Shown: in pieces, positions 15,307-64,000 of the stretch
Position numbering within the stretch: the first letter of the stretch is position 1
Layout of the letters: each line of letters begins with the position of its first letter
NCBI GenBank assembly: GCA_030704615.1
Contig: CM060734.1
Coordinates: forward strand, 27,404,001-27,468,000
Reading direction: 5' to 3'
From: Takakia lepidozioides
Lineage: Eukaryota > Plantae > Bryophyta
Length of the DNA: 64,000 nt
Translations under genes and position numbers: made by a program
Notes under the pieces: generated by a model
The model's input: only the letters and a program-made list of their open reading frames with translations
Told to the model about the DNA's origin: nothing
Databases searched by the model: none

Positions 15307-15327
15307 AAAAAGCCGTGTCCTCACGGT

Positions 15328-18877: not shown

Positions 18878-18884
18878 TTTAGAC

Positions 18885-19094: not shown

Positions 19095-19564
19095 AGTTTC
19101 CAAGTTATAGCATTATGGCCTGTCCTGTCGAGACGCCCGTTACTCAGAACGACGCCGCCTCTTGCGCTCAATTTCCCTCCATTTTCTTGATCCTTTCTCT
19201 GGTTTTCTATTGGCTGTATCCGCTGTGACTGGATTTTAAATTTTATCTTCTTTAGTGGACTTTCCCTCTTGGATAGTCCACTAGGATCACACATGTGACA
19301 AGAATTCGGCTTTTCTGTACTTGCCGTTCGTTCCGTTTCCCTTTTTCCGTACTCATTAATGGGCCTGGCTTTCATCCCTTTTGACGGCCGTTCTTGTCTT
19401 CTTTCTTTTTGACACCTGTCCTTGCACTTCATTGTCTGCTGTGTGTCGCGCCCTGACCTCCACGTGTCTATTTTTAAAGTAATTTCCGTTTCCTCTTCCG
19501 TCATCCATTTTCCTGAAGTTATTATGTGTCCACTTGTCACTGATTCTATGGATGGTGTAACTTT

Positions 19565-19775
19565 AGTAGGCTGTGTTGAGCTGTGACAGGCTGTGTCATA
19601 CTGTGTTACACTGTGATAGGCTGTGATGCACTGTGGTAAGCTGTGATAGGCTGTGACACGCTGTGGGTTGTTATAGGCTGTGTTGCGCCGTGCTGGGCTG
19701 TGATAGGCTGTGTTGCGCCTTGCTGGACTGTGATAGGTTTGTGTCACGTCGTGATGGCTGTGGTAGGTTGTGTGT
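19565..19775. repeat. GGCTGTG-type minisatellite downstream of integrase
   Basis: Tandem (A/G)GCTGTG(A/T) units. Confidence 0.8.
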
Positions 19776-22700: not shown

Positions 22701-23821
22701 CCTGCTCATCAGCTGTGATTGTCCAACCAGTCACCACTTCATCTGTAAGCTCACAGTGGCTGGTTCTTCTAGGATTTCTATTTCTCCTTCTCTCTCTTCA
22801 TAGAAATGTGATGGGTAAATGCTAGTTTCCTCTTCAGTTGGTGTTGCTGTCATTACACCACAGCAGATACCTCTCAAACAACTTAGGCTTTCCAGCCGCA
22901 TCTCGCAACCTGCTCCCACTCTGGGTGTGCAGCAAAAGGGTAGCTTCCTGCTCCTCATCCAGTCCTCCTCTCCAGTCATACTCTCTGACTCCTCGAGGGT
23001 CTTCTTGTAGCAGGTAATCTACTAGATTTCTTTGTGGTAATTGTATCTCGTGTATCCCATTATGCACGGTTAAAACTGAGAATTCAGTCATGGAATACCC
23101 TGCCTGTTGCAGCCACGGACGCCCAATAATAAGGAGTAAGCCTCCATGACTTCATCCATTTTTAATACAGTTACTGTGATCATAAAGATCATTTTCTGTA
23201 TCTGTATCTTAACTCCTCTTATTAATCCCAATGGCTGCAAACTTCTTTGATCTGCCATTGTTACTGTAAATGGGGCTGGTTTCATGTTACTTAGACCAAG
23301 CTTCTTCCTTAATTGGTCTGTCATGATATTTACTCCAGAACCACCATCTATCAGTACATCAGTTAGTTCTGTGCTTCCAATTCTCATTGGATTACTGGCA
23401 TAGAATCATCAAAGTCCATGACTGGTTCTCGCCCTTCCGGGCTTCACCTTATAACTGGTCACCTTGCTGTTCAGGTCTGTGTTTCCTGTCTCTTGGGCAT
23501 TCGATTGATTGCCTGATAAAACCTGTGCCTTACAATAAGGGTGCCACAGCTAATAGCTGTCCAATGGTAATTTCTGCTTGGTCTGACTATACTGCAGCCA
23601 AGTCTCTTCATTATTGCAGTTGAATCTTTTTTTTTCCTTTTTCCTCACTCCCTTCTTTTTCTCCATCCGAATAAGAGGAACTGGCCACAGGAATATTCAT
23701 ACTCTTTTGCATTTACCGTATAGTATAGTCACTTCCTTGTGCAGTTCCTTCTCTATCTTTCCAAGTCTAGTCATCTTCAGGCATATATTGGCACTTCAAG
23801 TTAATCTTCTTCCTCTTACTG
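19744..23821 (-). mobile_element. Athila-like Gypsy pol, copy 1 (protease-RT-RNaseH-INT)
   Basis: LIDGGSGVN protease; RT KKDPFPL, FLDD; RNaseH HCDASG, EREAL, ADHLSR; [32 protein letters not shown] motif. No chromodomain. Frameshifts increase toward the gap. Confidence 0.92.
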
Positions 23822-24321
23822 NNNNNNNNNNNNNNNNNNNNNNNNNNNNNNNNNNNNNNNNNNNNNNNNNNNNNNNNNNNNNNNNNNNNNNNNNNNNNNN
23901 NNNNNNNNNNNNNNNNNNNNNNNNNNNNNNNNNNNNNNNNNNNNNNNNNNNNNNNNNNNNNNNNNNNNNNNNNNNNNNNNNNNNNNNNNNNNNNNNNNNN
24001 NNNNNNNNNNNNNNNNNNNNNNNNNNNNNNNNNNNNNNNNNNNNNNNNNNNNNNNNNNNNNNNNNNNNNNNNNNNNNNNNNNNNNNNNNNNNNNNNNNNN
24101 NNNNNNNNNNNNNNNNNNNNNNNNNNNNNNNNNNNNNNNNNNNNNNNNNNNNNNNNNNNNNNNNNNNNNNNNNNNNNNNNNNNNNNNNNNNNNNNNNNNN
24201 NNNNNNNNNNNNNNNNNNNNNNNNNNNNNNNNNNNNNNNNNNNNNNNNNNNNNNNNNNNNNNNNNNNNNNNNNNNNNNNNNNNNNNNNNNNNNNNNNNNN
24301 NNNNNNNNNNNNNNNNNNNNN
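23822..24321. other. Assembly gap (500 N)
   Basis: Run of N. Confidence 1.
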
Positions 24322-27300: not shown

Positions 27301-30290
27301 GTGTGCTGCAAACAAGGTAGCTTCCTGCTCCTCATCCAGTCCTCCTCTCCAGTCATACTCTCTGACCCCTCGAGGTCTTCTCATAGCAGGTAATCTACTA
27401 GATTTCTTTGTGGTAATTTGTATCTCGTGTATCCCATTATGCACGGTTAGTAACTGAGAATTCCAGTCATGGAATACCCTGGCCTGTTTCAGCCACGGAC
27501 GTCCCAATAATAAGGAGTAAGCCTCCATGACTTCATCCATCTTCAACACAGTTACTGTGATCATAAAGATCATCTTCTGTATCTGTATCTTAACTCCTCT
27601 TATTAATCCCAATGGCTGTACACTTCTTTGATCTGCCATTGTTACTGTAAATGGGGCTGGTTTCATGTTACTTAGACCAAGCTTCTTCCTTAATTGGTCT
27701 GTCATGATATTTACTCCAAAACCTCCATCTATCATTACATCAGTTAGTTCTGTGCTTCCAATTCTCAATTGGATTACTGGCATAGAATCATCAAAGTCCA
27801 TGACTGTTTCTCGCCCTTCCGGCTTCACATTATAACTGGTCACCTTGCTGTTCAGGTCTGTGTTTCCTGTCTCCTGGGCAATTCGATTGATTGCTTGATA
27901 CAGCCTGCTACAATAAGGTGCCACAGCCAATAGCTGTCCAATGGTAATCTCTGCTTTGGTCTGGCATATTACTTCAGCCAAAGTCCCTTCATTACTCTGC
28001 ATGTCTGCATCTTCTTTCTTCCTTTCATCCTCACTCACTTCTTCTTCTCCATCAGAATCAGAGGAATCTGCCATAGGAATATCAGTACTCTTCTGCATTT
28101 CCCTTATGGTATCTGCCACTTCCTTGTGCAGTTCCTTCTCATCCCTCCATGCCTCATCATCTTCAGGCATATCACTGCCACCTTCATTATCATCCTCTTC
28201 CTCAACTACTAGAGGTATTAGTTTGGCTTTGCTTCTTGTTACTATCATTGTACTTACTCCTGGTACAACACATGGCCTAACCATGTGAGCTGCCACCACT
28301 GGGCCCTCATTCACAGGAGCTCTCATCTCATTCTGGTGTCTAATCCAGAATGAACAGGCTGCCTTGCGATGTCCTGGCTGATTACAATAGTAACATAGTT
28401 CTTCACCATTGGGTCCTCGCCCTTGGTCTGTTCTTGGATTATTTCTGTAATCCTGATTCTCGGGCTGGTAATTCCCCCTTGGATTACCCTGATAGTTGCC
28501 TCTGGAATTTCCTTGGTAATTCCCTCTTGAATTACCTCTCCCTTCCATGCCATTGTTATAACCACCAGACCTACCATAGTGGTCCTGATCATTGTTTCTT
28601 CTTGGCTGGGGCTGCACCTGATGCACCCTTACTTGCCTAGGTTCTCTTGCAACTGTCCTTCTGTTGTAGTAACAATTCTCAGTAGAATGGTTATCCATTT
28701 ACAGATAGTACAGTGTTTCTCCTTCATGTGGCACTCTGTGGTGGTATGGCCTTCATTCTGGCACTTTGCACACCATACACCCTTCCTCCAATGTGTTGCA
28801 GCCTCTGTGGCATACTTCTTCAAGATTTCTTCCAATCTTTTCTCATAGTTATCCCTTTTCAACTTCTCCTTTCTCTTACTCTTCCTTTTTAGTTCTTGCT
28901 CTTCTTCTTTATCTGACTCATCCTCAGAGTCCTCTTCCTCCTTTTTCTCTCTCCTGAGCATTCCCAATTGCTCAATTATATTTGCAGTTTCAAATGCCTC
29001 CTCCAATGTATTATGGGGTAACATATCCACTTTCTTTTGCAACTCTGGTCTTAGTCCATTCACAAACCAAGTCTTCTGTAAACCTGGTGCTGGTACTGCA
29101 GCCAGCTTTTTCATCATCAATTCCATCTTTTCCATATACTCCTCAACAGTTTCATGCTTCTTTTGCTTTAACTGTTGTAAACTTCTATACACTTCATCCT
29201 CAGTTTTACTTGTCCTGAACCTATTTCGGAATGCTGTATTCAAGCCATTCCAGGTTAGGAGATGATTATCAGGGAATCTTGCATACCATTCACTTGCTTT
29301 CTTGATAAGTGAACAAGGAAACAATCTCATCTTGGCATCATCGCCATTCTCATTGTTCACTATACACATGTGCTCAAATTGGCTAATGTGTACATCGGGA
29401 TCCCCTTTTCTTGAATATATTGGAAAAGGTGGTTTTGCCCGTGTTGGTTGTAACGCCATCTGTGGCCCTACCTTCTGCCCACTGACAAGTACTGGCACCC
29501 TTGCTGGTGCTGGTCCTTCAGGACCTGTTGTTGTTGTGGTGGATCTTTCACCAAGTGGTGACCCTTGAGCACTCCCTGCTACTGGCCCCACGATATTCAC
29601 AGTATTCCCAGCTTCAGTTGCACTACTTCCCACACTCCCTGTCCCCCCAGAGCCAGATCCAGGCAGCCCGCCTGATCCCCCTGAGCCGACACCTTCGTTG
29701 GCCTGTGATCCAAGTGCTCCACTTGATCCAGGTCCAACGGGTTGGGATGTCCTGGTTGTAGTCTCAACCTCAACTGTTGGGTCTACTTCTTCATACTCTT
29801 CCTCTTCCAATTTCTTCTCTCTGTTTTCATCCTCCAAGTTCTGCCCTTGGGTTTCTTCTTCACTCATGTAACTCAAGTGCAATGGTGTTGGAGAGTCTGA
29901 ACTCTCCGTTGGCTCTGCCACATCCTCTCCTCCTTCTTCACCTTCCGCTTCAGAAACTGGAGTTCCTGCTTTTGGTGTTCCATGCCAACTCTTATCAAAG
30001 ATTTCTGTCAAATCTTTTATCCAGGGATGTACCTCAGATCTTTCACCTCATGATTGATCTTCTTCCCGTACCAATTCCCTTAATCTTTCTTGCAAAGAAA
30101 CATAAGGAGTGGCATCCAACTCTAGTTCTTCCGGTATGGGTGATGTACTCTCTGATCTTAATGGTGTGAGAGGTCCAGATGATTCCCCTATGTCTATTCC
30201 TCTCTCCCAAAGATATGGATAATTAGCTTTCAGATAGCTTTCTCTTTTTGCTGAATATCTCTGGCGTCTAGCTTCTCTTTCATCACTCAT
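24322..30290 (-). mobile_element. Athila-like Gypsy gag-pol, copy 2 (frameshifted)
   Basis: Retrotransposon gag (DPDVHISQFE..LFPCSL..ASEWY), three CCHC knuckles (CAKCQNEGHTTTEC, CTICKMDNHSTENC across a frameshift, CYYCNQPGHRKAAC), protease MIDGG, and RT/RH/INT duplicating 19744-23821. A ~200-bp deletion lies at ~27145. Confidence 0.92.
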
Positions 30291-30311
30291 GTCCCATGTC
30301 TTTCATTTCTT

Positions 30312-31007
30312 TTAATGTGGCAATAACCAAAACTCTCTTCTGTAATATCTCTCGTATATGCCTGGGTTTCTTTCAAGCTTCAATGCACCCTTTGCTATAC
30401 TTGAAGTCTCCGTTACCATATAACCATATGGCAAACAAGTCTGGAAAGCTGTTCTTGGTGTGAGTTTGATCCACAAAATATCCTTTGGAATCCAATTCTT
30501 TACCAGTACAAGCTCTTCATGCATATGAGTATAAACATTCACCTTTCTTTCCTCCCAGCCTTCAAACTCTACTCGCTTAATGGATAGCAATGCTATCACA
30601 TAAACCAATGTTGGTAACCAACGTGCTCTTCCTCTACAGGCCACCTGATAAATCTTTATCACTCCTTTCTCCAGACCCCACTCAGGGTCAGCATCATGCA
30701 CTCTCTTAAGAATGTTTTCTTTACAACTGTCTGGCAATTCCAAAAACCTCTGGAAGAATCGTTTGGACAATCTTTCCTTCTCAGTTTCACAAGGAATTGG
30801 ATTCACATCAAATTCTTTAATTCTCCAACCACCATGATCCCACCAGATGCCTGTCACATCTGGTTGTTCATGACCCAGTTCCCCAGTATGGTCGCCAAAT
30901 GTCGCGCGGCTTTTACCCACCCATCCCTTCGCTATCCGAGGCGGAAACTCCAAGATAGAAGAGTTGGAAATCTCTAAGTACTCAGCCCGCTCAGAACAAT
31001 CAGTCAT
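30312..31007 (-). CDS. Putative 231-aa 5' accessory ORF starting inside the LTR and crossing the PBS
   Basis: Uninterrupted ORF upstream of gag with protein-like composition. No recognisable family. Confidence 0.45.
   Translation of the reverse strand: MTDCSERAEYLEISNSSILEFPPRIAKGWVGKSRATFGDHTGELGHEQPDVTGIWWDHGGWRIKEFDVNPIPCETEKERLSKRFFQRFLELPDSCKENILKRVHDADPEWGLEKGVIKIYQVACRGRARWLPTLVYVIALLSIKRVEFEGWEERKVNVYTHMHEELVLVKNWIPKDILWIKLTPRTAFQTCLPYGYMVTETSSIAKGALKLERNPGIYERYYRREFWLLPH
30880..30897 (-). promoter_or_regulatory. Primer-binding site, tRNA-Arg-like
   Basis: The minus strand reads LTR-CA-TT-TGGCGACCATACTGGGGA. TGGCGAC... is typical of tRNA-Arg-primed non-chromovirus Gypsy elements. 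Confidence 0.75.
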
Positions 31008-39400: not shown

Positions 39401-40347
39401 TCCATAGGAAACACAAAGAATCTGAATTGCTCATCCCATCAGGCCTGCAGGTTACTTTGGTATTATTTATCCTAAAGCAACTTGAATACAATGCCTGAAT
39501 CATTCTCTTCGCATCTACCAATGTCTTACCGTTTTGGAAAATAGGTAAACATTCAAGGGCATATAACCAAGGACCAGATTTGGCCACAAAAGATCCATCC
39601 ATATCAGTTTGGCATGGTATCAAGTGTCCTAGAGTAACCGGCTTCTAAAAGAGGCTAAGTTTCCAATGCTTGTACATTCAAGAACACTGTCTGGTCATGA
39701 AAACAGGTCTGCCCTACATTGTAGCATGTTACCAGATAAATTCTTTAAAGCCATCAGCTTGTCATATCATTGCTCCATTGTCACATCAGTATGCCATAGG
39801 GAACAAGAGATAGTCGCCCTAATGATTGTCATAAAGTAACAATCGGAAAATCTTATATCAAACTTTTAGTGTTTACCCACCCCTTGTTTTGGGTAAAACA
39901 TGTGTACAAAACCAAAGGGGGCAGGTATTGGGACTTAGGTAATGAAGTCTGGCAGGGGTTTACCACCTGGTTATATTCAGACAAAACATCTACCAGCAGC
40001 ATATCATAATTGGGTATTTTTTATGGTGCTATAAAGAGCAAAGCCATAACCAGGAGAAACATAGAAACATTTGAGCCAAAGAAATGGAACTCATTCTTAT
40101 CATAAGGTATCTAAATCTGACAAAAGGCATCGGCTACAGGGGACCGGCAAACAAGAGTAATGTGCATTGACCGGATCATGTACTAGGTGTACATGTCTAC
40201 TCCAGCAAGCTGTCTTACCGAGGCCTAGCTCAAAACTTCAGCATTCATAAGCCCTATAGATGTTCTATGCTTATCTCAGGTACCTTCAAGGATGCCTTGC
40301 TCTCCATGCCCAATTAGCCAACATATTTTTGCTGGAGAAGATCTTAC
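36422..40347. repeat. Tandem duplication of a ~2,026-bp unit (copy 1 36422-38448, copy 2 38449-40347 truncated)
   Basis: Near-identical sequence and ORFs offset by 2026 bp (37034-37597 vs 39060-39623). Confidence 0.95.
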
Positions 40348-43300
40348 AAGGCTTTACCATACACTATGATAGGAGGAAAACTTTATAAGCTAGGACCTGA
40401 TGGAGTACTGAAGAGATGTTTGTACCAACATGAAGTCAATAAGGTTTTGGAGGAAACTCATAAGGGAGTGGTTGGAGGACACTTTGGAGAGGAGACTACC
40501 AGTAGAAAGATATTACTTGTAGGATACTGGCGGCCTACATTGTTCAAGGATGTACACAATTTTTGCAAAAGCTGTGATGAGTGCCAAAGATTAGGACCAT
40601 TGCAGAGATCAGGGAAGATGGCTTTACATCCTACAATGCCTACTGAACCATTCCAGAAATGGGGATTGGATTTTGTTGGCCCAATCAACCCACCTGCAAG
40701 AAACACACAGAACAAGTATATAATCACAGCTACTGATTATACTACTAAGTGGGTAGAAGCCAAAGGACTGCGAGATAACACAGCGAAATCCACAACTAGA
40801 TTCTTTATGAGAACATAATCACGAGATTTGGCTGTCCCTTAGAGTTCATCAGTGATCAGGGGAGTCATTTCATCAATGAGACCATTGAACTACTGACCAA
40901 GGAATTTATGATTGTGCATAGGAAGAGCACAACTTATTACCCACAGGGTAATGGGCAAGCAGAGGCCACCAACAAGATATTGTGCACTATTCTTGCTAAG
41001 ATAGTTAATGCTAACAGAACGGATTGGGATACAAAGCTGCTGACAGCTTTGTGGTCTTATAGGACTTCCTATAAAGTCACTACAAAGCATACACCAATTC
41101 AATTAGTCTATGGCATGGAAGCTCTACTTCCTGTGGAATTCTAGCTACCCACCATGAGAACTGAATGGGAAAGGAGAATGGATTTGGAAGATTCAATTAA
41201 AGTGAGAAGACATGAATTATATCATGTAGAGGAAGTTCGTGCCGATACAGCTGATAACATGACCAGAATACAGATGAAAAGGAAAGATCGGTTTGATAAG
41301 GCAAAACCTTTAAAACATGAGACTTGGTATTGTGGTTGCAGAAGAAAGGGAAAATTAAGGCTTCTAAGCTTAAGTCCCCATGGAAAGGACCTTATGTCAT
41401 ACAGAAGATGTATGATAACAACACAGCAATGCTGCAGATCATTAACAAGGAGATGCTTGGTAGAGTTAATGCCAACAAACTGAAGGGATACAGTGGTATC
41501 CATGATGGACCATTGCAACATGATTTGAATTTCGAAGTAGAAAAGGAGCAACAGATTGCACCAGCATCACCACCAGATCATGCAGTGCATGCCATAACGC
41601 CTCATGTGCATGGTCATATGAGAGAACACAGGGTTCTCACAGCCAGCATAGACCCACACAGGCCACACAAGCCGCACAAGCTGCACGGGCCATAGGGACG
41701 GTGACAGGTGGTCACGAGTTATCAACGATAAAAGGGTCAGTAAGTAAAAAATACAGTTAAGGGGGCACCCATAGGAAATCTGCCACGGGGCTAGAAAGTG
41801 ACGGAAGGGTGTTTGGAAGCAAACACGTGGCCTAAAAAGAAAGGTTTTCCCTATTGCATGTACTGCAAGGGAGAAAACCATCACACTAAACGACAAACGG
41901 GGCCGCCAAAGTACCCGCCAGGTACTTCCGCCGTAACTAATCCGGAACAAATAAATGCCCCGAGAAGACAGGGTAGTAATAATTCTATCAGAACACCTAG
42001 AGGGAAGTTAAGTCAACATTGTGATTATGTTGCCCATTCAAAAGAATAACGGCCAACGGGGCTGATTCTAAGAATCAAGATCAAGAACCTAAGAGGGTTA
42101 TGAGCGGCAGAGTAGGGGTTATTCCCGATAACCATTGCTTAGGGAGTGGGAGCATTGAAGGCTATAGTCCTGCAGCTATGGCGGGCGTTACGGATTACAC
42201 TCTAGCCTTACTCCTTACGCAGTGGCACAAAGATGGGCAGGACCACCTGACCTTTTCTCTCACGCATTGCTTGCAAGCACCTCAGGCTTATGTGCAACTA
42301 CCACTTCCTCTGTGTGTGAACCACACTTTCATGCTTTACGCGCTTCAGAGTTTCTTGCAATTGTTTTAAACAAGGCCTCCTTGTTTGCCAAGTATGAAGA
42401 GAGTGAGAGACATGGACGACATGAGGGTGAAGAGTAGTCTAGTGCTGCAAAAGAAGAGTATTGCCACTCCACAGGAAATACGTCTCTTGGAGGAATTAAG
42501 ATTGTAGGGCCTAACACGCAAAGATTGGTCTTTGCATCACAAAGAGATTATGATACAGTTTATCAGAAACTACGATCCAAGAACGGAGATTACACGAGTC
42601 AAGGGGGTTGACATGCAGCTTACACCAGAATACTTGCGAGAAGTATTTGACTTGCCCAAGGGAGCATAGGCAGTAGAGGAGGACAGAATAGAGTTGCAAG
42701 TCACAAATCTTTTTCCTGAGGGCAACTTCCACAAGCGCTGAATCTCCTCCTACAATTCCTGTACTTCACAATAGACAGTATCTACAGTTACCATTGCAAC
42801 TTTTTGAATTCGTTCCCTGAATTCTTGGATTTCCTCCTTGCTCAACTTCTTTGGAACCTTGCCCTCTCTTGGTCCTCCAGTCAACCAGAGCTGCAAAATG
42901 TTCTGATCCACTAACTATTGAGTGGAAGTCCTAAGAGCCTGCTCCTCCCTGAGCTTGTAAGCTTTATTTTGTTGTTCCAACTTCTCTATCATTCTCTGAT
43001 AGGGGTCCTTTAAGGCTGCATAGGCAGCTGCCAAATTATTGGCTTCATTCCACGCTCGGTCAGTTAAAGAGAGTTCATTGTCCCGTACTTTGACCTTCGG
43101 TGCAATTGTGTAAGTTGCTGGTCCTTTTGTTCATTGTGGTGCCTCAGCTCCTGGATAGTACTCTCATTGCAACGAATTGTGTTCTCCATGTCCGCAATGA
43201 GTTCTCCCTGCTCTAGTGCCCGTGCCTCTGCCCATGCACACAGTCCATATTTCTTCTTGACTTCCTCCTCAGCTTGTGTCAACTTAGCCACGAGAGTGGC

Positions 43301-52749: not shown

Positions 52750-54894
52750 GCCATGCAGACAAGGTTGCTGCGAATCTGGAATGGCCATACAAACACGAAG
52801 TTGCTGTACCACTTTCCCATCGAGCCAACAGACGACAAAATGAATGACTGGCTCTACATGATGACTTGGTGGCATCAGGTATAATTTCCTCCTCTTCTAT
52901 GTGTTGGACATCATCGCAATTTCAAATTCATGAATGTTTTGGAGACTTGCAATGCTGCAGGTACTGACCCACGCCCAGGAGCAATTGGATTGCAACACCA
53001 CCACTTTCAAGTTACAGATCAACTGGACGAAACCGGAGACAATGGAGAACTACGTGCAGTCCTGGCGAGGGCGCTTCGCAAACCTCTTTTTCAGAGAAAT
53101 TGCAAAGGCAAGATGCAACGTATACATCGAAGAGCAGGAGGGTGCTGACAAAGCGGCAATGCGAGTCTTGTTCAGGTAATCTGCTGCCAATGCATCCCCC
53201 TATTTGCAGTTTTGAGGATTTAGCCAAGCAGCGGTGGGTATTGCGGCGCCAAAATATACCTCTGCAAGATGTGAATGTTGGGTAATTGGGGCACGGTCCA
53301 TTGCGTATTTCGGTGCCGAAATACCTTTTGCATTCAGAACTTCCTCTTGCATGATGCATCAGTAGCATGATTTTTGTTGAACTGGCTCGTGATTGCAGGT
53401 ACATAAATTTTGCTCTCATTCTGTCCGGAGCCATTCAAAGGGTCCCACCATTCTTCCTGGTGTGGAGGACACCTGGAGGTCATGGTACGATGTACACAGA
53501 AGTAATGGCGAAGGAGTGGCATGCCGAGCATTTGGTAGACCGTCCCTGGTATGTGGATCTCCGAAGTGGGACCGTTGACCTCTCGGAGGTTAACTTGAAG
53601 AAGGAAGCGAATGCCCGGGCTATGAAGGCGCATTTGGATCCCCAACCAGAGGACGCGGAAGAACTGAAAGTAGAGGAGGCAGCAAAGCAGAAAGCACTGA
53701 GAAAGTCAGCCAAGGCGGCAACGTTGGTGAAGGAGCAGATGGAGAAGCAGGCAGCTGAGCAGCCCAGGGACAGGAAGAAAAGAATGCGCAAACAGGGGCA
53801 AGAGACGAAGAGCCCCACACCCAAGAAGAAGAAGCAACAACATAGTCAGCTAGATGACGAGGATTCCGACAATGATTTCCAGCAGGATAACACCCAGGGG
53901 GCCACACCTCGTCCGAAAATTCACAAGGTCCAGCGCTCCGGGGGTTTAGCTGCGAAGACATCACTATACGAGGATGCACCTGGCAGACCCTACCGTGCGG
54001 TGCACATTGCGGGCAGGGAAGTCCTCAAAACACCCACAATTGTGAAGTATGTTAATGAAAATTTCGTAACTGCTCTGACCAGAAGGCTGGAGAAAACAAG
54101 ATTGAGGAAGGCGATCGAGGCCCACCAGGGGAAGGGGAAGAGAAAGGCCACTGGAAATGATATCGAAGACACTCCTGGCTACACAAAGATGATGGAGTAT
54201 TTTGTGGCGATGAGCCACGGCAAAAAGAGCACAGTCGGGGGCAGGGCGGTGAAAGCCTCCATCGACATGATCCTTGTGGATATCCCGGATGGGTAGGAGA
54301 TACTGGGGCTGGGCTCTCTACCGTGGTGGAACAAGTACGACGAAAGATACTGGAGCCACACATTCGGGTTCGCAGCCAACATGTTGGACGACGACGGCTG
54401 TGTTGTTGTGCTAGCAGCCGATGGAGAAGTCACTGAGAATGATATCAAAGTATGGACGGGGAGAAGTGCAGCACCCATCCTGAAGAAGATCTAGACTTGC
54501 ATCAACACGTAGGGTCTTGTCAACGATGGTCAGAAAGTTTGCTGCGGTTTTCCTCTATTCTGCCAATTTCTGCGCCGAAATTGCCCATGTATGTGTAGGC
54601 CACCTCTCACGTTCTCCTTTCCTTCTTTGCAGACTCTTATCTTTCAGGCATTCTGCTTCGTGAAAGAACATTCGAAATTCAAATTACGTCAAGCAGGCAG
54701 TCTTGTTGATTCCACAGTTGATCCACTAGACTATAACGTCCTGTTCAACCATGTGGGAGAGAATGACATGCTTTGTGATTTGTCGGGCAAGCCTTGGAGG
54801 TATGGTAGGACCAAGTTTCCTACATTCATCCAGACGCTCATGGAAACGTGTACGGATGTTGAAGGCAGGGTCCTCGACGTCACTGCTAATACAG
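52750..54894 (+). pseudogene. Spliced gene encoding a beta-class N6A/N4C DNA methyltransferase-like protein (exons ~52750-52878, 52961-53175, 53399-54536, 54633-54894)
   Basis: Three GT-AG introns with consistent phases (0, 2, 0). Motifs in beta order: IDMILVDIPDG (motif IV, DPPY-like), FAANMLDDDGCVVV, I*TCIN (IW), and RTKFPTFIQTLMETCTDVEGRVLDVTANTG (motif X/I). In-frame TAGs at 54294, 54492 and 54510. Confidence 0.7.
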
Positions 54895-56759
54895 GTGAGA
54901 GCTGTCAAGTTATTTTACCACTAGTGTGAAACTAGCTAGGAAATAGCTAGTTTTTACATATTGATATTTGGGATTGGCCCAAGTGTCAATCCAGGGGTCA
55001 AGGCAGATTTAGGCCCTGGAGTGGTTATCTTCACGGCAAGCGCGGGAGGCTCATCTTTCTCGAGTTGAGCCTCACCGCGCCTAGCTATGGCGCCGTAGTG
55101 TGGATTCCCCATGGCGTGGGGTGCACTTGGCTTGACTTGTATTTGAGTGATGAGGTTATATATGCATGAGTTTATGCTTCAGCTTTGTGAGCTCGCATGA
55201 GCTTGTGCTTGTATCCTTCCTCTTTATCACTCGAGAAAGATGAGCTCGTATCTATGAGTGCTAGATACGAGTTAGTTGTAGCACTTGTGGTTTTTGCTTG
55301 AGATTGAGAGAAACCAAGTTGTTATGCAAGGAGCACCATGGAGCTCTTGGTTGTTAGAAGCGGAGGTGATGTGGGTTACAAGGTGGTAGACCTTGGCATT
55401 CGATCTTCAGCTTCAGAGATGAAAGCACCATGCTGCAGGTAATTCCAGAGCACCTTGATGGTTTCAGATTGTGTACATGCATGAGCAAGCACGATTGGGA
55501 AGAGGACCAGTCAAGAGCAGGTTATAGTGGCTTTGGTGGCAAAGCTGAGAACTGGACCTGGGAATGCGAGCTTTCATTGTGTGAAGGATTGCAAGACCAA
55601 GCGAAAGGGCTGATTTGGCTTGGGGCAAATCAATGCACTTTGTGGAGTATGGTGAGATTGGGTTCCAATCTCGAGCTTCAGCATTGAGAGGGCTCTTGTC
55701 ATGGCAAGAGCAGGGCTGGAACAGGAGCTAAGAGGTGCGGCAAGGCCATGGAATGTAGGGTTTCAGAGCTTGGAAGAAGAGCTCTTGCACCACAAGAGAA
55801 GTGTCTTGTGGCTGGAAATGTAAGCCTTAGGGTTTCAGGAGCTTGGCAAAGGCTGTGGAGTGCTTAGTCTTGTCTTAGAGAGCATCAAGGAGCCAAGGAG
55901 CCAAGATAGGGGGCTGATATCTCTTGTGTGAAGAGGTTGCATGTGTGGAGCATGTATTCAGCTCATTGAAGCTTCCATCTTCAAGCTTGGAGGGCAAGCA
56001 AGGAAGAGGGAAGGGCTGACTTCCCTTATGTGAGGGCAATGTATGTGTGGAGCATGCTATCAGCCTGGTGAAGGCTTGCACTTTTAGGTGTGGGAGTGCA
56101 AGGAAGGAAGGAAGGGGCGGGCTGGTTTCCCTGTAGGGCATGTAGAGCATGCTTTCAGCCTGCTGAAGCTTGTATTTTCAGGTTTGTGGGTGCAAGAAAT
56201 GAAGCAAAGGAGCTGATTCTCTTATGGTGAGAGTGGGGCATGTGTGGAGCATGCCTTCAGCCCATTGAGGCTCTTGTTTTCAAGCCTTAGAGAACTAGAA
56301 CGGAAGGTCTAGGGCTGGTTTCCACGTGGAGTGAAAGAAAAGCACTTGTAGGGCCTATGTGAGTTGGGGTTTCAACTTCAAGCTTGAAGGGATCGCAACT
56401 CTTGAAGCAACAGATGTAGAGAGCTGGAATAGGCTCTAAGACAGATGTTATGGCCAATGAGAGTGCTTGAATGAGTGCTCACAAGGGCTGGGAACCAGCA
56501 GGGCTTGGTTGTTTGCCATTGAGTTTAGTGGCGTGTTTGGGGAGGCTAAGTGAGAAAGAAGGCTTGGTTTGTGGCAACCACCTCATGGCTTAGGGCTACT
56601 ATGGTGGTGTGTGGGAGCCGAAAGAGCAAGGATACCTTGCTGATTTCCTCACAGCCACCATAGCTCGGTGGAAAGAAGCCTAGAGTCCAAGAGACACAAA
56701 CCCTAGCTTGGCGTGGCTAAACCCCTTGGAGAAATGGCTAAACTGCCAGAGCGGCCATG

Positions 56760-57420
56760 TGTGGGGCTGTGACAGGCTGTGCCCTGTGCCCTGTGGGGCT
56801 GTGACGGGCTGTGCCCAGTGGCCTGTGGGGCTGTGACGGGCTGTGATGGGCTGTGGCAAGCTGTGACAGGCTGTGACGGGCTGTGACGGGCTGTGATGGG
56901 CTGTGGCAAGCTGTGACAGGCTGTGATGGGCTGTGATGGGCTGTGACAGGCTGTGCCCTGTGCCCTGTGGAGCTGTGACGGGCTGTGATGGGCTGTGACA
57001 GGCTGTGCCCTCTGGCCTGTGGGGCTGTGACGGGCTGTGACAGGCTGTGGCAAGCTGTGATGGGCTGTGATGGGCTGTGCCCTGTGCCCCGTGGGGCTGT
57101 GACAGGCTGTGGCGAGCTGTGACAGACTGTGCCCATGGCCTTTGGGGCTGTGACGGGCTGTGAGGGGCTGTGACAGGCCGTGCCTGAGGCCTTTGAGGCT
57201 GTGACGGGCTGTGAGGGGCTGTGACAGGCCGTGCCCATGGCCTTTGGGGCTGTGACGGGCTGTGAGGGGCTGTGACAGGCCGTGCCCGAGGCCTTTGGGG
57301 CTGTGACGGGCTGTGACAGGCCGTGCTTGAGGCCTTTGAGGCTGTGACAGGCTGTGACAGGCTGCGACAGGCTGTGCCCAGTGGCCTGTGGGACTGTGAC
57401 GGCTGTGACCAGTGAGCTGT
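56760..57420. repeat. GGCTGTGA(C/T)GG minisatellite in the 5' region of the DNMT-Gypsy
   Basis: Dozens of ~10-bp GGGCTGTGAC/GGGCTGTGAT units with a higher-order period. Confidence 0.9.
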
Positions 57421-58144
57421 GTGGGCCTGTGCTGGTCTGTGGTGGCCCGTGTTGACCTGTGGACGGCCTGTGCTGACTCGTGGAGGCACTGGTGGACTGC
57501 CTAAGGACTGGCATGTGGTCTGGAAGGCCGAATTTTGAAGCTCGTGGAGGGCGGTTTGAGGAGTATCTTCATGATATTCCCATGGTCATGCAAGTGAGGG
57601 TAGAGAGGAGAGGCAGAGTGTTGGGATGAGAGCATGCTGGGGTTAGGCATTGCTTTAGCTTCTTTCCTCGTAGTTTCCACCCTCTCATTAGGCCAAGACC
57701 TTTCCGTAGGTGGAGGCAAGAGTCAGTCCGGGTTTGGGCTGGGTGTCCTTGCAGGAGCAACACCGTGGAGTTGTTTTTGGTGTGGGGGAGTTGTCGATCT
57801 GATTTCTTGTGTTTGGATCCCCTCCATACCTGCATGCTTGACTGTGCGCCATGCTAGTTTTGGTGGGCGCTTGTTTTTATAGGTGATTGGTCCGGATTTG
57901 ATCACCGGCCAGTCCTAGAGCATGCTGTCGATGGTGAGGACTGGGGTGATGACCAGCCAGACCATCATTGTTTCTCTTGTGGTGAGGTTGGAGGTGATGA
58001 CCAGCCAACCATAGGAGTGCTTGCGGTGGATGCAGGTACAGGTGTAGGCTATGTTAGGAACTTAGTATTCCAAACCATAAGCCGCAACAGGGTCTCTACC
58101 CGGTTACCTTGTGGAGAGGGGGTTAGGGACATGTTCATGACCGG

Positions 58145-61100
58145 TTGAGTGTCAACACGGAGGTGCCACTAGTTGCTGGGGACAGTGCCGGTTCGAGCAC
58201 TAGCGATACTAGTGGGTACACGAGACGAGGTGTGCGGTTTAGGCCACCTTCACCTCCTGTGTCTTCCACGGAAGGTTCTGATTCGGATTGTGAATCAGGA
58301 GGACTCATACCGGCGGTGCAAGTTGTTTCTTTGCCATTGTTGTGGGACACAATGGAGGAGATGTATGGAGCTACCAAGGGGCCACGAAGGTACTCTGGGG
58401 CGGTGGGCACCATCGAGTTGGATGATTTTATCCAAGAGTTTGATAGTTGGTGTGATTTGCAGCAAATGCGCAATCCACAACTATTTACGCCTTTCATGGC
58501 ATGGAAGGGGCTGTTTCAGCACCTTGAGGGGCCGCCTATGGATGATTACCATGAGTTCAGGCGGGGGCATGAGGTTGAGATCGAGGAGTGGAGGATGTAC
58601 TGGTCACCCGACTATGTCTCCATCACTAGGGGCACTAGAGCCACGAGGGCAGTGGCTACACCTGCCGCTGCACCGGCAGCTTCAGCAAGCAGCAGTGGGA
58701 CTGGTGGTACAGTAGCTACGACGTCCACCCAAGCCACTACCGCACCAGCACTAGCACCCGTGCCTGCCTTCAACCCTGTTGTGGAGTTCTTCGAAGAGTT
58801 GAGAGGGAACTACCAAGGGGTGAGGACAGAGAAGTTGCGGAGCTTGCAAGAGTTCCAACGGAAGCCGACCGAGAGCTTGAGGGAGGCTTTCACTCGCATG
58901 AGGCGCTTGATAAATGTAACCCAAGGGGTTACGGAAGCTCAGGCAGTCCAATTCTGGTATGGGATATTGGACAAGGAGCTGAGGAGAAGGGTGCGGGATG
59001 CAACTCTCCTACAAGCGGCCCAACCCACCTTAGCAAATGTGTTTTTGCTGGCAGAGCGGATAGAGCTCAACATGGTGGAGGAACGAGTGGTCATGGTGGG
59101 ATTTGCTAAGGAGACACCACGGGGTAGTGGTGCTCCTAGCCAACCACTACCTCAACGTGCTCAAGGCAACAAGGGGGCTCAGGTGAAGCTCAGGGAAGGG
59201 CAGAGAGGACCTCAGATGCAGGGGTCTCTCCCTTCATTTGCTGGCCAACAACGGGCGGATGTGGTGTGCTGGACATGTGGAGGACCCCATGTCAAGAAGG
59301 ATTGTCCAGAGGGAGGCAAAGGGCCGGCACATGCACAGCCTGCACAGTTACAGTGTGGGCATTGTGGCAAACACGGGCATGGAGAGGCTCAGTGTTATGG
59401 TTTGCATCCTGAGTTGCGCCCAGGCCAGTTCCAAGGGAACAATGGTGGCCGGGGGCGAGGTGGAGCAGCCCAGAGGGGACGAGGTGGCCAGCCACGAGGC
59501 CAAGGGCAAGCTCAACGTGGCCAAGGACGCGGAGGTCAGGGTGTTGACCAAGGCATGGCCAACCGGCTTCAGCAGCTAGAGCAGAGGCTCGCTGCCATGG
59601 CTACAGCTCAGGTGGTACCGGCTCTAAGGCCGGATGGTCCACCTCCTGCTCCTGAGGGAGGAGATATGGGAGGCATGGGATTCATGTGTGGAGCAGCACT
59701 ACCACTAGTGCAGGTGGAGTCTGCTGCAGCCGTGACTCGAGGAGCAGCACGAGTTCCTGAGCCACGAGGTGCAGAGGTGGAGTTGGATCCACAGCGTGGG
59801 GAGGCAAGCCGTCAGGCTAGGCTTCCTCAGTCATTCACATTGGCGGAGACAGTGTCGACGCCATCCATGGCACCTAGTTCTCGCCCGACTGTTACCGAGG
59901 CGGAGGTTACTATGCCATTGGGGAGAGCTACACGGGTAGCACCACTACCTAGTGTTGCCAAGGCTACGGCAGCTAGTGTGCTGCTAGGAGCGGCCACATC
60001 TGTGTGCCAGGCTCCATTGTTCTCGGCTACCATGATTGCGACGCCGGGGGTAAGACCAGCTGAGGTGTTCAGGCTGGCAGCTACACTCTGTGAGAGTGGG
60101 GAGGTTACTTCATCTTCTGCGGAGATAGTAGGAGGTGTAGTGCCGGAGGGATCCTCGGATTTGAGGGTCAAGACTGCCACGGCGGCGCCATGGCAAGCTG
60201 CAGCTGCCAGGTTGATGGAGCTGCCAGCTAGGCCAGCCATTGAGCGCGCCATGGTGACACCTGGAGTTGTCATGTTAGACAACCAGGATGGCATTTTCTG
60301 TTTGAGTGGACCGGCAGGCAAGAGGTACCGGCCACTGCGGGTCTTGTTGGACTCGGGAGCTCAGCCATTGATGCTGGGCAGAGCTGCTATTGCAGGCTTG
60401 GGCCTCACGGAGGCGGATATGGAGCCTTGTCCTTTCCAGATACAGACGTCTCTGGGAGGATCGGAGCAGGCTCGGGGCATGACACGGCGTGAGTTGGCTA
60501 TCAGACTACGGCCGGATCACCCTACAGATGGCTCAGTGATGCGAGCCAAGGCCATTGTGACAGACGCAGTCTCATACGATGTCCTGGTTGGTGGGGCAGT
60601 GTTGTACCCCATGGGCTTCACCCTGGATTTTTGGGAGGAGTCAGCTTCCTATAGGCCTGCATGGCAGTCAGGGGAGGGCCGGCGTGTGCAGCTCCCTGTG
60701 ACGTTCATAGGAGGAGTTGCGGTTGCCCAGCGAGGCAAGATGCCGACACTAGCAGCATTCACAACGGCAGTGAGTTGGCCTAGAGAGTTGCTTGAGGGCA
60801 ATGCTCATTCAGAGGATGTACCACCTCCAGGAGAGCAGGATGACATGTATGGTATGGCGGAGTTGCCTACCATGGTTGCTCAGACTCCATTGTGGGGCAC
60901 GAGCAAGGATTTGCAGCGGGATGCTGATCGACGGGTGCAACAAGCCTGGGTGGAGGCTTTTGTACCGTCAGGAGAGGAGGAGAGTGTGGGGATTGCACCA
61001 GGACCACCTCAATTGTCTCCATTGGACACCACACCTATTGTGTGGCAGTATCCGGATGAAGGCATTTGTCTTCTGGACTTGTTTGGCGGGATCAGCACCG

Positions 61101-62311
61101 GATTGGCTGCTGTGTTACAAGCAGGTGTACGAGTTCGGCGTTACCTGTATGTGGAGAGGGATGAGACTGCACGACGCGTTTCACTTCGCCATGTTGCTCA
61201 GTTGGTGCAGCGGTACCCTGAGTTGTTGTCGGTGTCTGCAATTCGTGGATATCAGCAGGCCTTGCCAGCAGACATTTCGTTGCTGGGGGCGCAGGATTTG
61301 GAGCGGGTTGGCTCCATTGATCTGGTAGTGGCAGGTTGGCCCTGCCAAGGGCATTCATCAGCCGGGCATGGCAATGGATTGCGAGACTCGAGGTCGGGTC
61401 TGTTTTGGGAGATGGTGCGGGTTTTGCGCCACTTGCAGCTTCATCAAGCTGTATCTCCAGCATACATCTTGGAGAATGTGCCACTGATGGGCGATTCTCG
61501 GGCCAGGGTGATGGCCAGTGTGCATCAAGTCCGGTCGTGGCTTGGGTCAGCAGTGTTGCTAGATGCAGCTACAGTGGGGTCACGGGCTCATCGTCCACGG
61601 CTATGGTGGACTAACTTGATGCCACCCGCACTGCTCAAGCGTGCATTTGATGGGGTGCAGCGGCCAGCACATCTCACAGTGGATAACATTCTGGACACAG
61701 GGAGGCAGTCTCAGCGTGTGAGACACGATGACCGTTCGCCTTTGGCAGTGGTCAACAAGGTGGGTCAACCACGAGCAGCATTACCTACACTGCTCAGCTT
61801 CCCAGGATCGCATGCTTTCCGGGATAGTGGACCTGGCCTCCTGTGGGATGCTCAGTTGCAGCAGTTAGTGGAGCCTAATGCTGACGAGCGTGAGCGGGCA
61901 ATGGGTTTTACCACTGGTACCACGGCGGTGTCGTCTCTTTCTGAGGCATCACGTCGTCAAGTGTTGGGGCAAGCAATGGATCTCAATTGCTTGACCTGGA
62001 TTATCAGCTTGGCTCTGGCTGAGCAACGCAGAGTGCGGAGTACACTTCCCTCAATGGTCTCTCTGCCTACCGAGACGGTACAAGCAGTGAGTGGGGGCGA
62101 GCATGTGAGGACCACGGGGTGCATGCATCCATGGCACACGTGGGAGGTGCTCGAGGTTCAGAGGGAGTTGGCAGCCAAGGCGGCTGTGATAGATGAGGTT
62201 GGGGATTCTTCTCGGGTTGAGGAGGTCCTCAATGATGAGATGATGGGGCAGGATGAGGTCTTGTCATTGACTGAGCAGGCAGGGAGTACTGCTCAAGAGG
62301 TTGCAGCATAG
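58145..62311 (+). CDS. Gag-protease-C5 DNA methyltransferase (DNMT3-like) polyprotein
   Basis: Single 1388-aa ORF: gag (LDDFIQEFDSWC, FQRKPTESLREAFTR), knuckles CWTCGGPHVKKDC and CGHCGKHGHGEAQC, protease LLDSGA (~60341). MTase at ~61060-62010: I LDLFGGISTG, II YVERD, IV AGWPCQGHS, VI ILENV, VIII AHRPRLWWTNL, IX ERERAMGF, X RRQVLGQAMD. Confidence 0.93.
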   Translation: MSVNTEVPLVAGDSAGSSTSDTSGYTRRGVRFRPPSPPVSSTEGSDSDCESGGLIPAVQVVSLPLLWDTMEEMYGATKGPRRYSGAVGTIELDDFIQEFDSWCDLQQMRNPQLFTPFMAWKGLFQHLEGPPMDDYHEFRRGHEVEIEEWRMYWSPDYVSITRGTRATRAVATPAAAPAASASSSGTGGTVATTSTQATTAPALAPVPAFNPVVEFFEELRGNYQGVRTEKLRSLQEFQRKPTESLREAFTRMRRLINVTQGVTEAQAVQFWYGILDKELRRRVRDATLLQAAQPTLANVFLLAERIELNMVEERVVMVGFAKETPRGSGAPSQPLPQRAQGNKGAQVKLREGQRGPQMQGSLPSFAGQQRADVVCWTCGGPHVKKDCPEGGKGPAHAQPAQLQCGHCGKHGHGEAQCYGLHPELRPGQFQGNNGGRGRGGAAQRGRGGQPRGQGQAQRGQGRGGQGVDQGMANRLQQLEQRLAAMATAQVVPALRPDGPPPAPEGGDMGGMGFMCGAALPLVQVESAAAVTRGAARVPEPRGAEVELDPQRGEASRQARLPQSFTLAETVSTPSMAPSSRPTVTEAEVTMPLGRATRVAPLPSVAKATAASVLLGAATSVCQAPLFSATMIATPGVRPAEVFRLAATLCESGEVTSSSAEIVGGVVPEGSSDLRVKTATAAPWQAAAARLMELPARPAIERAMVTPGVVMLDNQDGIFCLSGPAGKRYRPLRVLLDSGAQPLMLGRAAIAGLGLTEADMEPCPFQIQTSLGGSEQARGMTRRELAIRLRPDHPTDGSVMRAKAIVTDAVSYDVLVGGAVLYPMGFTLDFWEESASYRPAWQSGEGRRVQLPVTFIGGVAVAQRGKMPTLAAFTTAVSWPRELLEGNAHSEDVPPPGEQDDMYGMAELPTMVAQTPLWGTSKDLQRDADRRVQQAWVEAFVPSGEEESVGIAPGPPQLSPLDTTPIVWQYPDEGICLLDLFGGISTGLAAVLQAGVRVRRYLYVERDETARRVSLRHVAQLVQRYPELLSVSAIRGYQQALPADISLLGAQDLERVGSIDLVVAGWPCQGHSSAGHGNGLRDSRSGLFWEMVRVLRHLQLHQAVSPAYILENVPLMGDSRARVMASVHQVRSWLGSAVLLDAATVGSRAHRPRLWWTNLMPPALLKRAFDGVQRPAHLTVDNILDTGRQSQRVRHDDRSPLAVVNKVGQPRAALPTLLSFPGSHAFRDSGPGLLWDAQLQQLVEPNADERERAMGFTTGTTAVSSLSEASRRQVLGQAMDLNCLTWIISLALAEQRRVRSTLPSMVSLPTETVQAVSGGEHVRTTGCMHPWHTWEVLEVQRELAAKAAVIDEVGDSSRVEEVLNDEMMGQDEVLSLTEQAGSTAQEVAA

Positions 62312-63810
62312 CAACCACGGGACGCGTCCTCTACCTCTAAGCCCACTGGACTTAAGGTTGTAGTTACGGAGGACAATTGGGAGCCTGACATTGGACCCAT
62401 TGTCACCGGAGGAGAGAGACGACGTATACGGCGGTTCCTGAGGGCTTACAGGAATTGCTTTGCCTTCAGTTTGAAGGACTTGGGAGCACTGAAGGGTCAA
62501 GAGATCCGTATTGAGTTGGCCACTGACACGCCAATCTTTCGGAGACCCTATAGATACAGTGACATGGAGAGGTCTTTGATTCAGATGAGGACTCAAGATC
62601 TCTGGGAGGCAGGTTTGGTGGAGCTCTCTGGTGGAGAGTATGCTTCAGCCACAGTGATGCCAGCCAAGAAGGATGTCTATGGCAATTGGACGGAGAGACG
62701 TATGTGCGGTGATTACCGGCCTGTAAATCGTCAGACCAAGTCCGATAAGTATGCCATGCCAACACCAGAGGAGATCTTTGATGCCATCGGGCATGCTAAG
62801 GCCTTTAGCACTTTGGATTTACGATCCGGATATCACCAGTTGCCAATCAAGGAGGCGGACAAGCAGAAGACGGCATTCTGGGGGATCAATGAGCACGGCA
62901 AGATTGCCTATACCAGTGGCGGTTCTTACCATTTGGGCTTAAGAATGCTCCTGCAGAGTTTCAGAGAGTCATGGATAGGATTCTAGCAGGGGTGGACTTT
63001 GCTCGGTGCTACATAGATGACATCATCATCTTTAGTGTTACGATGGAGGAGCATGAGAGACACCTTCAGTGGTATTGGAGCGCTTGAGAGCGCACGGATT
63101 GAAGTTGCATCCGGGGAAGTGCAAGTTTTTCCACAACCAGATTGAGTATCTGGGTCACATGATATATCCTGGAGGATTGGGGGTACAGCAAACTAAGGTA
63201 GAGGCCATTGCACAAATTCCACGCCCCACGGATGTGAGCCGAGTTCGAGCTTTCATGGGGTTGGCAAACTATTATAGACGGTTTGTCAAGGGATTTAGTA
63301 CCATTGCAAAGGCTCTAACCAAGCTGACCAAGGTGGACCAGGAGTGGCAGTGGGAAGATGAGCAGGAACGAGCTTTTCAAGAGCTCAAGGCGAGGTTGAC
63401 CTCGGCGCCTATCTTGAGACGACCTATCAGGGGGCGTCCTTTTCAGCTGCATACGGATTGGAGCATGCTGGGGCTTGGAGCGGTGCTCACACAGGTGGAT
63501 GATGAGGGAAGAGAGTTCGTAGTGGCTTACGCTAGCCGCTCGAACAACGCTGCAGAGGCTAAGTACAGCTCATATGAGGGAGAGTGCTTAGCTGCAGTGT
63601 GGGCCGTGGCACACTTCAGGTGCTATCTATACGGCAATCTTTTCACCCTTGTCACGGATCACCAGCCACTCAAGTGGTTGATGGAGTCAGACAAGCTTAC
63701 GGGGAAGCTTGCACGGTGGGCACTTATACTCCAGGAGTATGACTTTCAGGTTGTGCATCGACCGGGTTTGGTCAATCGGGATGCGGATGGATTGAGTCGC
63801 AATCCATGCA
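62312..63810 (+). pseudogene. RT-RNaseH of the DNMT-Gypsy (in frame after the TAG; later single-base frameshifts)
   Basis: PIFRRPYR, RMCGDYRPVN, LDLRSGYHQ, LPFGLKNAP, YIDD; RNaseH LHTDWS, EGECLA, TDHQPL, ADGLSR. Frameshifts near 62900 and 63070. Confidence 0.9.
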
Positions 63811-64000
63811 TGAGCCAGCAGGATGACACTGGAGCTCGGTGGCATGGTGAGACGGACGAGGAGATGGTGCCGGGATGGCACGCATCTGCATTTTTGTGTA
63901 TCTTGGCATCGGGAGGTCAGATTGGACCTACAACAGGGATGACTGTAGACGGAGTGTCTGAGGACCCTGAGGCTAGTGATGAGCTAGGTGGTGCCAGAGA

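Follow-up and report, generated by a model that had tools for sequence, protein, structure and literature searches.

What a transposon gains from a cytosine methyltransferase of its own has been a question since 2018, hitherto confined to algae and dinoflagellates. The same question is raised by a 64,000-nt stretch of the moss Takakia lepidozioides (contig CM060734.1, positions 27,404,001 to 27,468,000; hereafter the window, numbered from its first letter), in which a Gypsy retrotransposon carries a DNMT3-like domain between its protease and its reverse transcriptase (RT). The element is read here as a dead copy of a multi-copy Gypsy of the KnitGypsy-Dnmt3 kind, in which a leaky stop codon would set the enzyme at the level of Gag and the element's own complementary DNA (cDNA) would be the likely target of methylation; as a whole, this sequence-based reading is held with middling confidence. 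The family has been described and is little studied. Its host range appears to be new, as does the likely leaky stop of tobacco mosaic virus (TMV) type that would put the methyltransferase on the Gag side. The coding part of the element is arranged as follows.

58127 to 62311, + strand: open reading frame 1 (ORF1), a stop-free frame of gag, two zinc knuckles, aspartic protease and C5-methyltransferase, closed by a stop.
58784 to 58951, + strand: gag capsid-like stretch; weak PF03732 match (E 0.01, below the Pfam cut-off), with homology to Gag of the intact relative L021.
59267 to 59395, + strand: two CCHC zinc knuckles, recognised as sequence motifs (PF00098 E 0.044, below the Pfam cut-off).
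60251 to 60706, + strand: aspartic protease, LLDSGA at 60344 (PF13650 E 0.004, below the Pfam cut-off; 40% to the Klebsormidium protease).
61064 to 62032, + strand: DNMT3-like C5 cytosine methyltransferase, motifs I-X unrearranged, catalytic Cys codon at 61343.
62309 to 62317, + strand: predicted readthrough site of the form UAG-CAR-YYA, an in-frame TAG with CAA CCA behind it.
62312 to 63800, + strand: RT and RNase H, in frame behind the stop, disrupted by two frame changes near 62900 and 63065.
63801 to 64000, + strand: linker towards the integrase; integrase, PHD finger and 3' repeats are expected beyond the window and are seen only in relatives (L021 and L029 among them).

A complete C5-methyltransferase domain of DNMT3 type had been proposed in the first-pass annotation, and both parts of that proposal were upheld. 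A hidden Markov model search with PF00145 gave 47.9 bits (cut-off 22; E 1.7e-12), and the motifs FGG (61082), GWPCQ (61328-61348), ENV (61472), AHRPRLWWTNL (61586), ERAMGF (61892) and RRQVLGQAMD (61952) were located. The features of a C5 cytosine methyltransferase, namely motifs I-X, the catalytic PC, ENV, RxR, the S-adenosylmethionine (SAM) loop and an HhaI-like fold, are all present. Structure prediction of 61034-62032 from an input of 60 sequences reached a pLDDT of 95.2 and a pTM of 0.93. The top PDB sequence matches were DNMT3A (E 9e-12), DNMT3B (1e-8), DRM (4e-6) and HhaI (5e-4). DNMT3A/B were also the structures closest to the model (Foldseek E 2e-20), with a VIA Z of 29.4 (rmsd 2.6, 279 residues aligned) versus 25.3 for the bacterial CpG methylase 4dkj and 24.2 for HhaI, and the whole domain model fitted DNA-bound DNMT3A/B best. 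Sequence and modelled fold both indicate that the domain is of DNMT3 type, its motifs not being rearranged as they are in DRM.

The catalytic Cys was present in all 62 full domains compared and the Glu of ENV in 61 of them. Conservation of the Cys is partly built in, because loci had been selected by the patterns AGWPCQGH or ERERAMGF; the 32 domains in which Glu replaces the Pro before a Cys that is still kept were not chosen by the PC pattern. The two arginines of motif VIII are conserved, as is the SAM loop, and the arginine losses look like C-to-T decay of dead copies. The ratio of nonsynonymous to synonymous substitution (dN/dS) of the domain was 0.12 at dS 0.25 (L021-L022) and 0.09 at dS 0.15 (L044-L049) in two pairs free of saturation; against L001-type loci, where dS is saturated, the window gave 0.07-0.09. 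RT gave 0.05-0.18 in the same pairs. Between near-identical dead copies the ratio of the domain climbs to 0.3-0.75, and that of RT likewise. These comparisons indicate that the methyltransferase domain is under purifying selection (Ka/Ks <0.2 between families) close to that on RT. The domain occurs in many copies, evolves with dN/dS far from 1 and has the C5-methyltransferase fold, and the doubts that the first-pass annotation had attached to itself on these three counts fall away.

The first-pass annotation had further placed the methyltransferase inside the polyprotein, directly before RT. This must be corrected, because a conserved TAG at 62309-62311 separates the two and the enzyme would end the Gag-level product. 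ORF1 ends at this TAG about 95 codons past the methyltransferase domain, and RT resumes in the same frame. We fetched 80 metagenome loci, drawn from at least 311 relatives among the 600 matches listed; together with the window, 58 of the 81 spanned the domain end and the RT start, and the other 23 were dropped. Among the 30 loci with RT identity of at least 55%, 28 hold an in-frame stop 13-20 codons ahead of RT (TAG in 20, TAA in 8), and CAR-YY follows the stop in 27 of these 28. Three of the 30 depart from this pattern: one locus is frameshifted, another carries a Tyr codon and a third has a second stop. The 28 more distant loci comprise 20 that are stop-free in that stretch, four with a common TAG at a Gln codon without CAR and four with scattered stops; in the distant single-frame family, gag and pol lie in one frame in most copies. 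A gag/pol frameshift in that sister family was considered and rejected, as the change in L049 and L055 is not shared and most copies keep one frame.

Five families carry the stop, followed by CAA CCA in the window family, CAA CCC (once CAA CCT) in the L001-type family, CAG TTA in L021/L022, CAA TCA in L029, and CAA TCA in L070 and L111. The full UAG-CAR-YYA-type hexamer is thus found in the window, L021, L022, L029, L070 and L111, and CAR-YY(C/T) in 22 L001-type loci. Third codon positions of the domain agree in only 33-53% among the four families compared. The second codon after the stop encodes Pro, Leu or Ser across families, so the constraint would act on nucleotides. Linkers vary from 80 to 115 codons on one side of the stop and from 13 to 20 on the other, with the frame kept in five families, and in L021, L029 and L111 the stop is followed by 1047 open codons that comprise RT, RNase H, integrase and PHD finger. 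In the host's own copies (859 contigs, run X2) no variant at 62309-62317 reached 3% of depth, while variants do occur at four places close by. A single contig of run X12 crosses the stop and run X8 offered no coverage; neither run enters the evidence. Among proteins that cover the domain end, 4 of the 116 close ones continue more than 190 aa past the domain versus 100 of the 161 distant ones; 73 of the close proteins stop 60-190 aa beyond the domain and 39 sooner. Marchantia proteins P0002 and P0003 terminate at the matching place, as judged from protein sequences only. Six 100-nt RNA folds behind the stop, made with no shuffle control, had no common shape. UAG-CAR-YYA is the tested readthrough signal of TMV, active in plant cells and also with UAA (PMC2754532, PMC3542737; these and the other papers are cited from the available parts of their texts). 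The conserved UAG-CAA-CCA is likely a leaky stop of the TMV type.

As shown by summed contig depth, which is no copy number, a rise of about 10-30-fold occurs at about 54900 in runs X1, X2 (one sample) and X5. The raised depth persists, even, across gag, protease, methyltransferase and RT in these three runs from two studies; run X7 gave no clear depth step at the element edge. Contigs from other copies differ from the window at the RT frame changes near 62900 and 63065. The window copy is dead because its RT carries these two frame changes. The domain is not private to the window copy, and the family is multi-copy in its host.

Homologue search with the domain returned 60 long proteins at E 0.001 among 7993 candidates, and 301 shorter matches of which 120 were listed; 270 cluster representatives pass 1e-30. 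The closest long proteins were Marchantia polymorpha models (72-76%), and the plants named among the 120 listed shorter matches were Calypogeia fissa (71%), Sphagnum troendelagicum (71%), S. tenellum, Marchantia paleacea and Riccia sorocarpa. Across these four genera, relatives are 64-77% identical. The suggested land-plant lineage thereby gains named members in liverworts and Sphagnum, and the suggested kinship with Klebsormidium elements was recovered in the similarity to P0042 and in both trees described below. No vascular plant is named among the 60 long proteins or the 120 listed of the 301 shorter matches, which does not show absence. Viral contigs gave only remote phage or prokaryote methylases (29-48% over short stretches), and a single relative was found among 366 pattern matches in prokaryote genomes (L111, in a cyanobacterial assembly). 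The intact element L111 and the domain P0228 sit in bacterial assemblies from metagenomes, most likely as eukaryotic contamination; L111 ends with a repeat of its own first 57 nt, as expected of a collapsed repeat or a circle.

In the methyltransferase tree the elements with the stop group as a single clade (22 of 77 rows, SH-aLRT 95). They do so again for RT/RNase H (9 of 52 rows, SH-aLRT 98), and the former tree follows the latter. A large second architecture, RT-RNase H-methyltransferase-integrase-PHD, occurs in the metagenome proteins P0030-P0053 and P0070-P0205, with 38 complete examples among proteins of at least 900 aa, and groups apart in both trees (SH-aLRT 94 and 93). Judged from these sequences, the domain moved, or was gained twice, within one lineage. 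A Gypsy at 8306-11100 of the window had been said to share the RT/RNase H signatures and to lack the methyltransferase. Its RT/RNase H is only 36-37% identical and lies outside the methyltransferase-bearing group in the tree; it is unrelated and therefore says nothing on gain or loss of the domain. The view of the domain as a gained or lost module loses the weight of that comparison and keeps its modularity, as seen in the second architecture.

The order expected for Ty3/Gypsy, gag-protease-RT-RNase H-integrase with a DDE integrase, is found in the window up to RNase H and is completed by the integrase in the intact relatives L021 and L029, whose RT/RNase H region is 76-79% identical to that of the window. 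The single uninterrupted frame from gag to methyltransferase proposed at first pass is open over 1394 codons, stop to stop, with its motifs in place. Knuckle 1 reads CX2CX3HX4C (59267-59305) and knuckle 2 CX2CX4HX4C (59354-59395). With the protease as query, nothing relevant was found among PDB matches. The codon at 58145 is TTG and the earliest AUG is at 58352. Upstream of this AUG, the stretch 58200-58260 resembles the N-terminus of ORF1 in L021. An AUG stands at that place in L021; in the window family it may have been lost, or ORF1 may start at a non-AUG codon. In relatives the integrase terminates in a PHD finger (L021:8038-8205, and the ORF2 ends of L029 and L111; PF00628 E 2.6e-10), which is nearest to the fingers of CHD4, PHF12, KAT6A, PHF21A and ATXR5. 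Several fingers of this type bind unmethylated H3 tails, and the finger is possibly a targeting module.

On the mechanism proposed, ribosomes would very probably halt for the most part after the methyltransferase, a minority continuing into RT, RNase H, integrase and PHD finger. Gag, protease and enzyme would thus be equimolar, and RT and integrase would come from readthrough. The protease would then, with good probability, free an active enzyme inside the particle, at about one per Gag. The substrate may be the new double-stranded cDNA, so that copies would arrive already methylated, either hiding from host sensing or editing or pre-setting chromatin; we give this step even to slightly better odds. 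Related domains, those of SymbioDIRS-Dnmt3, methylate CG de novo in yeast (PMC5890265).

Several observations weigh against this reading. The nearest domain assayed, that of KnitGypsy-Dnmt3, gave no methylation in yeast, an outcome from which its authors draw no conclusion, since human DNMT3B failed there as well (PMC5890265). Extra CpG or CHG loss was looked for in the element as a trace of self-methylation and not found. Silent-site CpG loss was not stronger than in the methyltransferase-less elements of the window, with C shares before G of 0.17, 0.12 and 0.25 versus 0.13, and on the other strand of 0.33, 0.20 and 0.33 versus 0.15. As to the stop, 22 of the 27 CAR-YY loci are copies of the one L001-type family, hence not independent, with a hexamer ending in C or T rather than A, and most of them have an AUG two codons after the stop. 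The Marchantia and Sphagnum gene models P0005, P0008, P0010, P0014 and P0029 skip the linker and fuse the domain to RT, and this splicing could be real. Sister single-frame families and the RT-RNase H-methyltransferase-integrase group carry the enzyme without such a stop, the place of which may be incidental. Both trees were quick searches on chosen subsets, with no bootstrap and with host DNMT3 left out.

Some of these points are the strength of other explanations. The enzyme could be active at the Gag level and have its targets in the nucleus rather than in the cDNA of the particle, acting in trans on resident copies, on competing elements or on host chromatin as a brake on copy number. The lack of extra CpG loss suits this action, the predicted dosage seems to exceed the apparent need of one 9-11 kb cDNA, and a brake of benefit to the host, like accidental host methylation, was raised by de Mendoza et al. 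(PMC5890265). However, a free silencer would bring little private gain to the copy encoding it, yet the domain is selected nearly like RT, and its tree follows that of RT/RNase H; we consider trans action rather unlikely. A domain that serves the particle as an abundant nucleic-acid-binding or RNA-modifying part, and is no DNA methyltransferase, would likewise account for Gag-level dosage, for the inactivity of the Klebsormidium domain in the yeast assay (PMC5890265) and for the lack of a CpG signature. Such a role would not explain why conservation extends to the catalytic Cys, to ENV, to the SAM loop and to both arginines of motif VIII, or why the whole model best matches DNA-bound DNMT3A/B (Z 29), and we judge it unlikely.

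The TAG itself might be an ordinary terminator, the enzyme still being made at the Gag level and Pol being reached by splicing of the linker or by re-initiation. In Ogre elements, stops that lie between gag-pro and RT are known to be spliced around. The five linker-skipping proteins would fit splicing, but these models derive from decayed copies; the AUG just behind the stop of the L001-type family would fit re-initiation, but the window family has no usable AUG, its first after the stop being codon 85, within RT. Neither route sits well with a single stop, with a frame kept on both sides in five families despite variable linkers, or with the conservation of CAR-YY at the nucleotide level, and we regard them as quite improbable. 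Chance capture of a piece of host gene, a chimeric assembly and a private nonsense mutation in the window copy are next to impossible. They are suggested by the dead state of the copy and by an assembly gap elsewhere in the window, and they are refuted by the identical layout in many genomes, by a contig depth that, in three runs from two studies, stays even over gag, over the methyltransferase and over RT, and by a stop common to the host's other copies and to distant families. Methylation of the element's own cDNA by a Gag-level enzyme remains the reading we prefer.

The ends of the element bear on its integration. Two features of the window lie ahead of ORF1.

54903 to 55250, + strand: 5' terminus (TGTCA...) with the likely terminal repeat A, placed by the contig-depth step; its right edge is approximate.
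56796 to 57376, + strand: 10-bp tandem array of about 57 copies inside the long 5' leader.

The layout A-coding-purine tract-B-A-B is common to five complete relatives, two from the stop clade (L032, L041) and three from the single-frame family (L047, L049, L055), which start with TGTCA and finish with CGACA. A 4-bp target duplication flanks four of them (L032, L041, L049 and L055), L047 being without its right tip. The TG...CA ends and the duplication of 4-6 bp expected for Ty3/Gypsy are thus found in relatives, the 3' end of the window element lying outside the window; two identical long terminal repeats, also expected, are replaced by repeats split as A...B-A-B. Inside the element the right and left ends abut, two letters apart, as CACGACA-GC-TGTCA in L012, L029 and L111, and the same form of joint occurs in L021, L032, L041, L047, L049, L052, L053, L055 and L059. 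In runs X1, X2 and X5, depth in the first bin after about 54900 is 2-4 times that of the next bin, and loose ends left of 54900 finish like the right terminus of complete relatives. The joint is thereby indicated for the window family as well, and the start of the element falls at 54903. The full A...B-A-B is seen in relatives; for the window's own family the internal joint alone is indicated.

No tRNA-type (TGG) primer site was seen behind the 5' repeat A in the four elements inspected by eye (L032, L041, L049 and L055), and no tyrosine recombinase was found in L021 or L029. Because the purine tract lies ahead of B, reverse transcription should yield B+A at both ends. Joining of these ends into a circle, followed by opening at one internal joint, would give exactly A...B-A-B. 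We think it fairly probable, independently of the other steps, that cDNA with B+A at each end is circularised and that the integrase opens the internal joint of right and left ends. Transposon circles of IS3 and IS911 have two ends abutted with a spacer; here the two ends abut with a spacer of 2 nt. The split direct repeats resemble those of PAT-type DIRS elements, unlike which the present elements have a DDE integrase, TG...CA ends and a 4-bp target duplication. Identity with Troyka, which has CG...CG ends and a 3-bp duplication and is found only in animals (PMC12440569), was rejected, because the relatives have ends of TG...CA type and a 4-bp duplication.

Among known systems the nearest is KnitGypsy-Dnmt3 of Klebsormidium nitens, described by de Mendoza et al. 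in 2018 with a DNMT3-like domain and DIRS-like repeats (PMC5890265). In both, a DNMT3-like domain that lacks introns and is unrearranged stands between protease and RT (P0042: 46% over 260 aa) and is under purifying selection, and split repeats A-coding-B-A-B accompany the Gypsy domains, the repeats here being those of relatives. They differ in that the domain shares one frame with RT in P0042, whereas a conserved stop separates them here, and in that the hosts here include liverworts and mosses, whereas the text of PMC5890265 names no land plant with such elements. The words Marchantia and Sphagnum are absent from the text of three of its supplementary files, and the text consulted holds no account of the ends, target duplication or integration of KnitGypsy-Dnmt3. 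Later papers of the group speak of streptophytes with land plants unnamed (PMC12344493; bioRxiv 2026.05.21.726589), and their supplementary trees may hold bryophyte sequences. A literature search outside subscription papers found no account of members in bryophytes, of a stop that follows the domain or of the way the split ends originate; an earlier report of the stop in plant elements is possible.

Retrotransposon-borne cytosine methyltransferases are also carried by SymbioDIRS-Dnmt3 and SymbioLINE-Dnmt (PMC5890265) and by EpiLTRs (bioRxiv 10.64898/2026.05.21.726589). Unlike the present family, those are separate captures on tyrosine recombinase, LINE or chromovirus-like backbones, and the EpiLTR enzymes are sister to DNMT4. 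The host plant enzyme PpDNMT3b likewise has an unrearranged DNMT3-type domain, and in moss it methylates CG and CHH de novo (Yaari et al. 2019, PMC6453930), but host genes are cellular and the Klebsormidium host copy is multi-exonic (PMC5890265). The nine-letter signal is identical to that of TMV type I readthrough, in frame and upstream of polymerase domains (PMC2754532, PMC3542737); unlike in TMV, it stands in a retrotransposon, between methyltransferase and RT, as a predicted site. In Tj1, Tosmo1-3, Tcry1, Tca2 and murine leukaemia virus, readthrough of an in-frame stop likewise sets the ratio of Gag to RT and integrase (PMC10085805, PMC5009743, PMC2194720). The stop of Tj1, Tosmo and Tcry1 is a TGA in another context, between Gag and protease, as the Gag/Pol-ratio stops of fission-yeast elements sit before the protease (PMC10085805), whereas here protease and methyltransferase fall on the Gag side.

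Next to the element is a multi-copy frame (53703-54902, + strand) that is broken and probably spliced, with the element at its end. The motifs of this frame resemble those of a beta-class amino (N4C/N6A) methyltransferase. ESM Atlas clusters of N6_N4_Mtase (0.85, 0.82) are a lead only, and no match was found in Pfam, PDB, NCBIfam, PHROGs or a homologue search. Several further Gypsy elements, decayed and lacking a methyltransferase, occupy 7532-11100, 15300-31000 and 40300-41600 together with nested duplications and inverted repeats, and the assembly gap comprises 500 N at 23822-24321.

Taken at its widest, the picture would be of a bryophyte-wide Gypsy clade with a TMV-type stop, DNMT3 at capsid stoichiometry, pre-methylated cDNA and a PHD-tipped DDE integrase that opens a two-repeat circle, an LTR retrotransposon thus writing a silencing mark of its own and integrating from a circle; in that full form it is doubtful. 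Copies of this kind can be misannotated as host DNMT genes or bacterial methylases, as with one match labelled a bacterial metagenome assembly and with L111 in its cyanobacterial assembly. With its split ends, the family is a candidate for integration from a circle by an integrase of retroviral type. The position of the stop would keep the enzyme with Gag and lower RT and integrase only, a clue that the enzyme works in bulk, either within the particle or starting from it. Marchantia polymorpha, a model with mutants, methylomes and transformation, carries the family (76% identical, annotated mostly as hypothetical proteins), and the question of what the transposon gains from its own methyltransferase therefore becomes testable.

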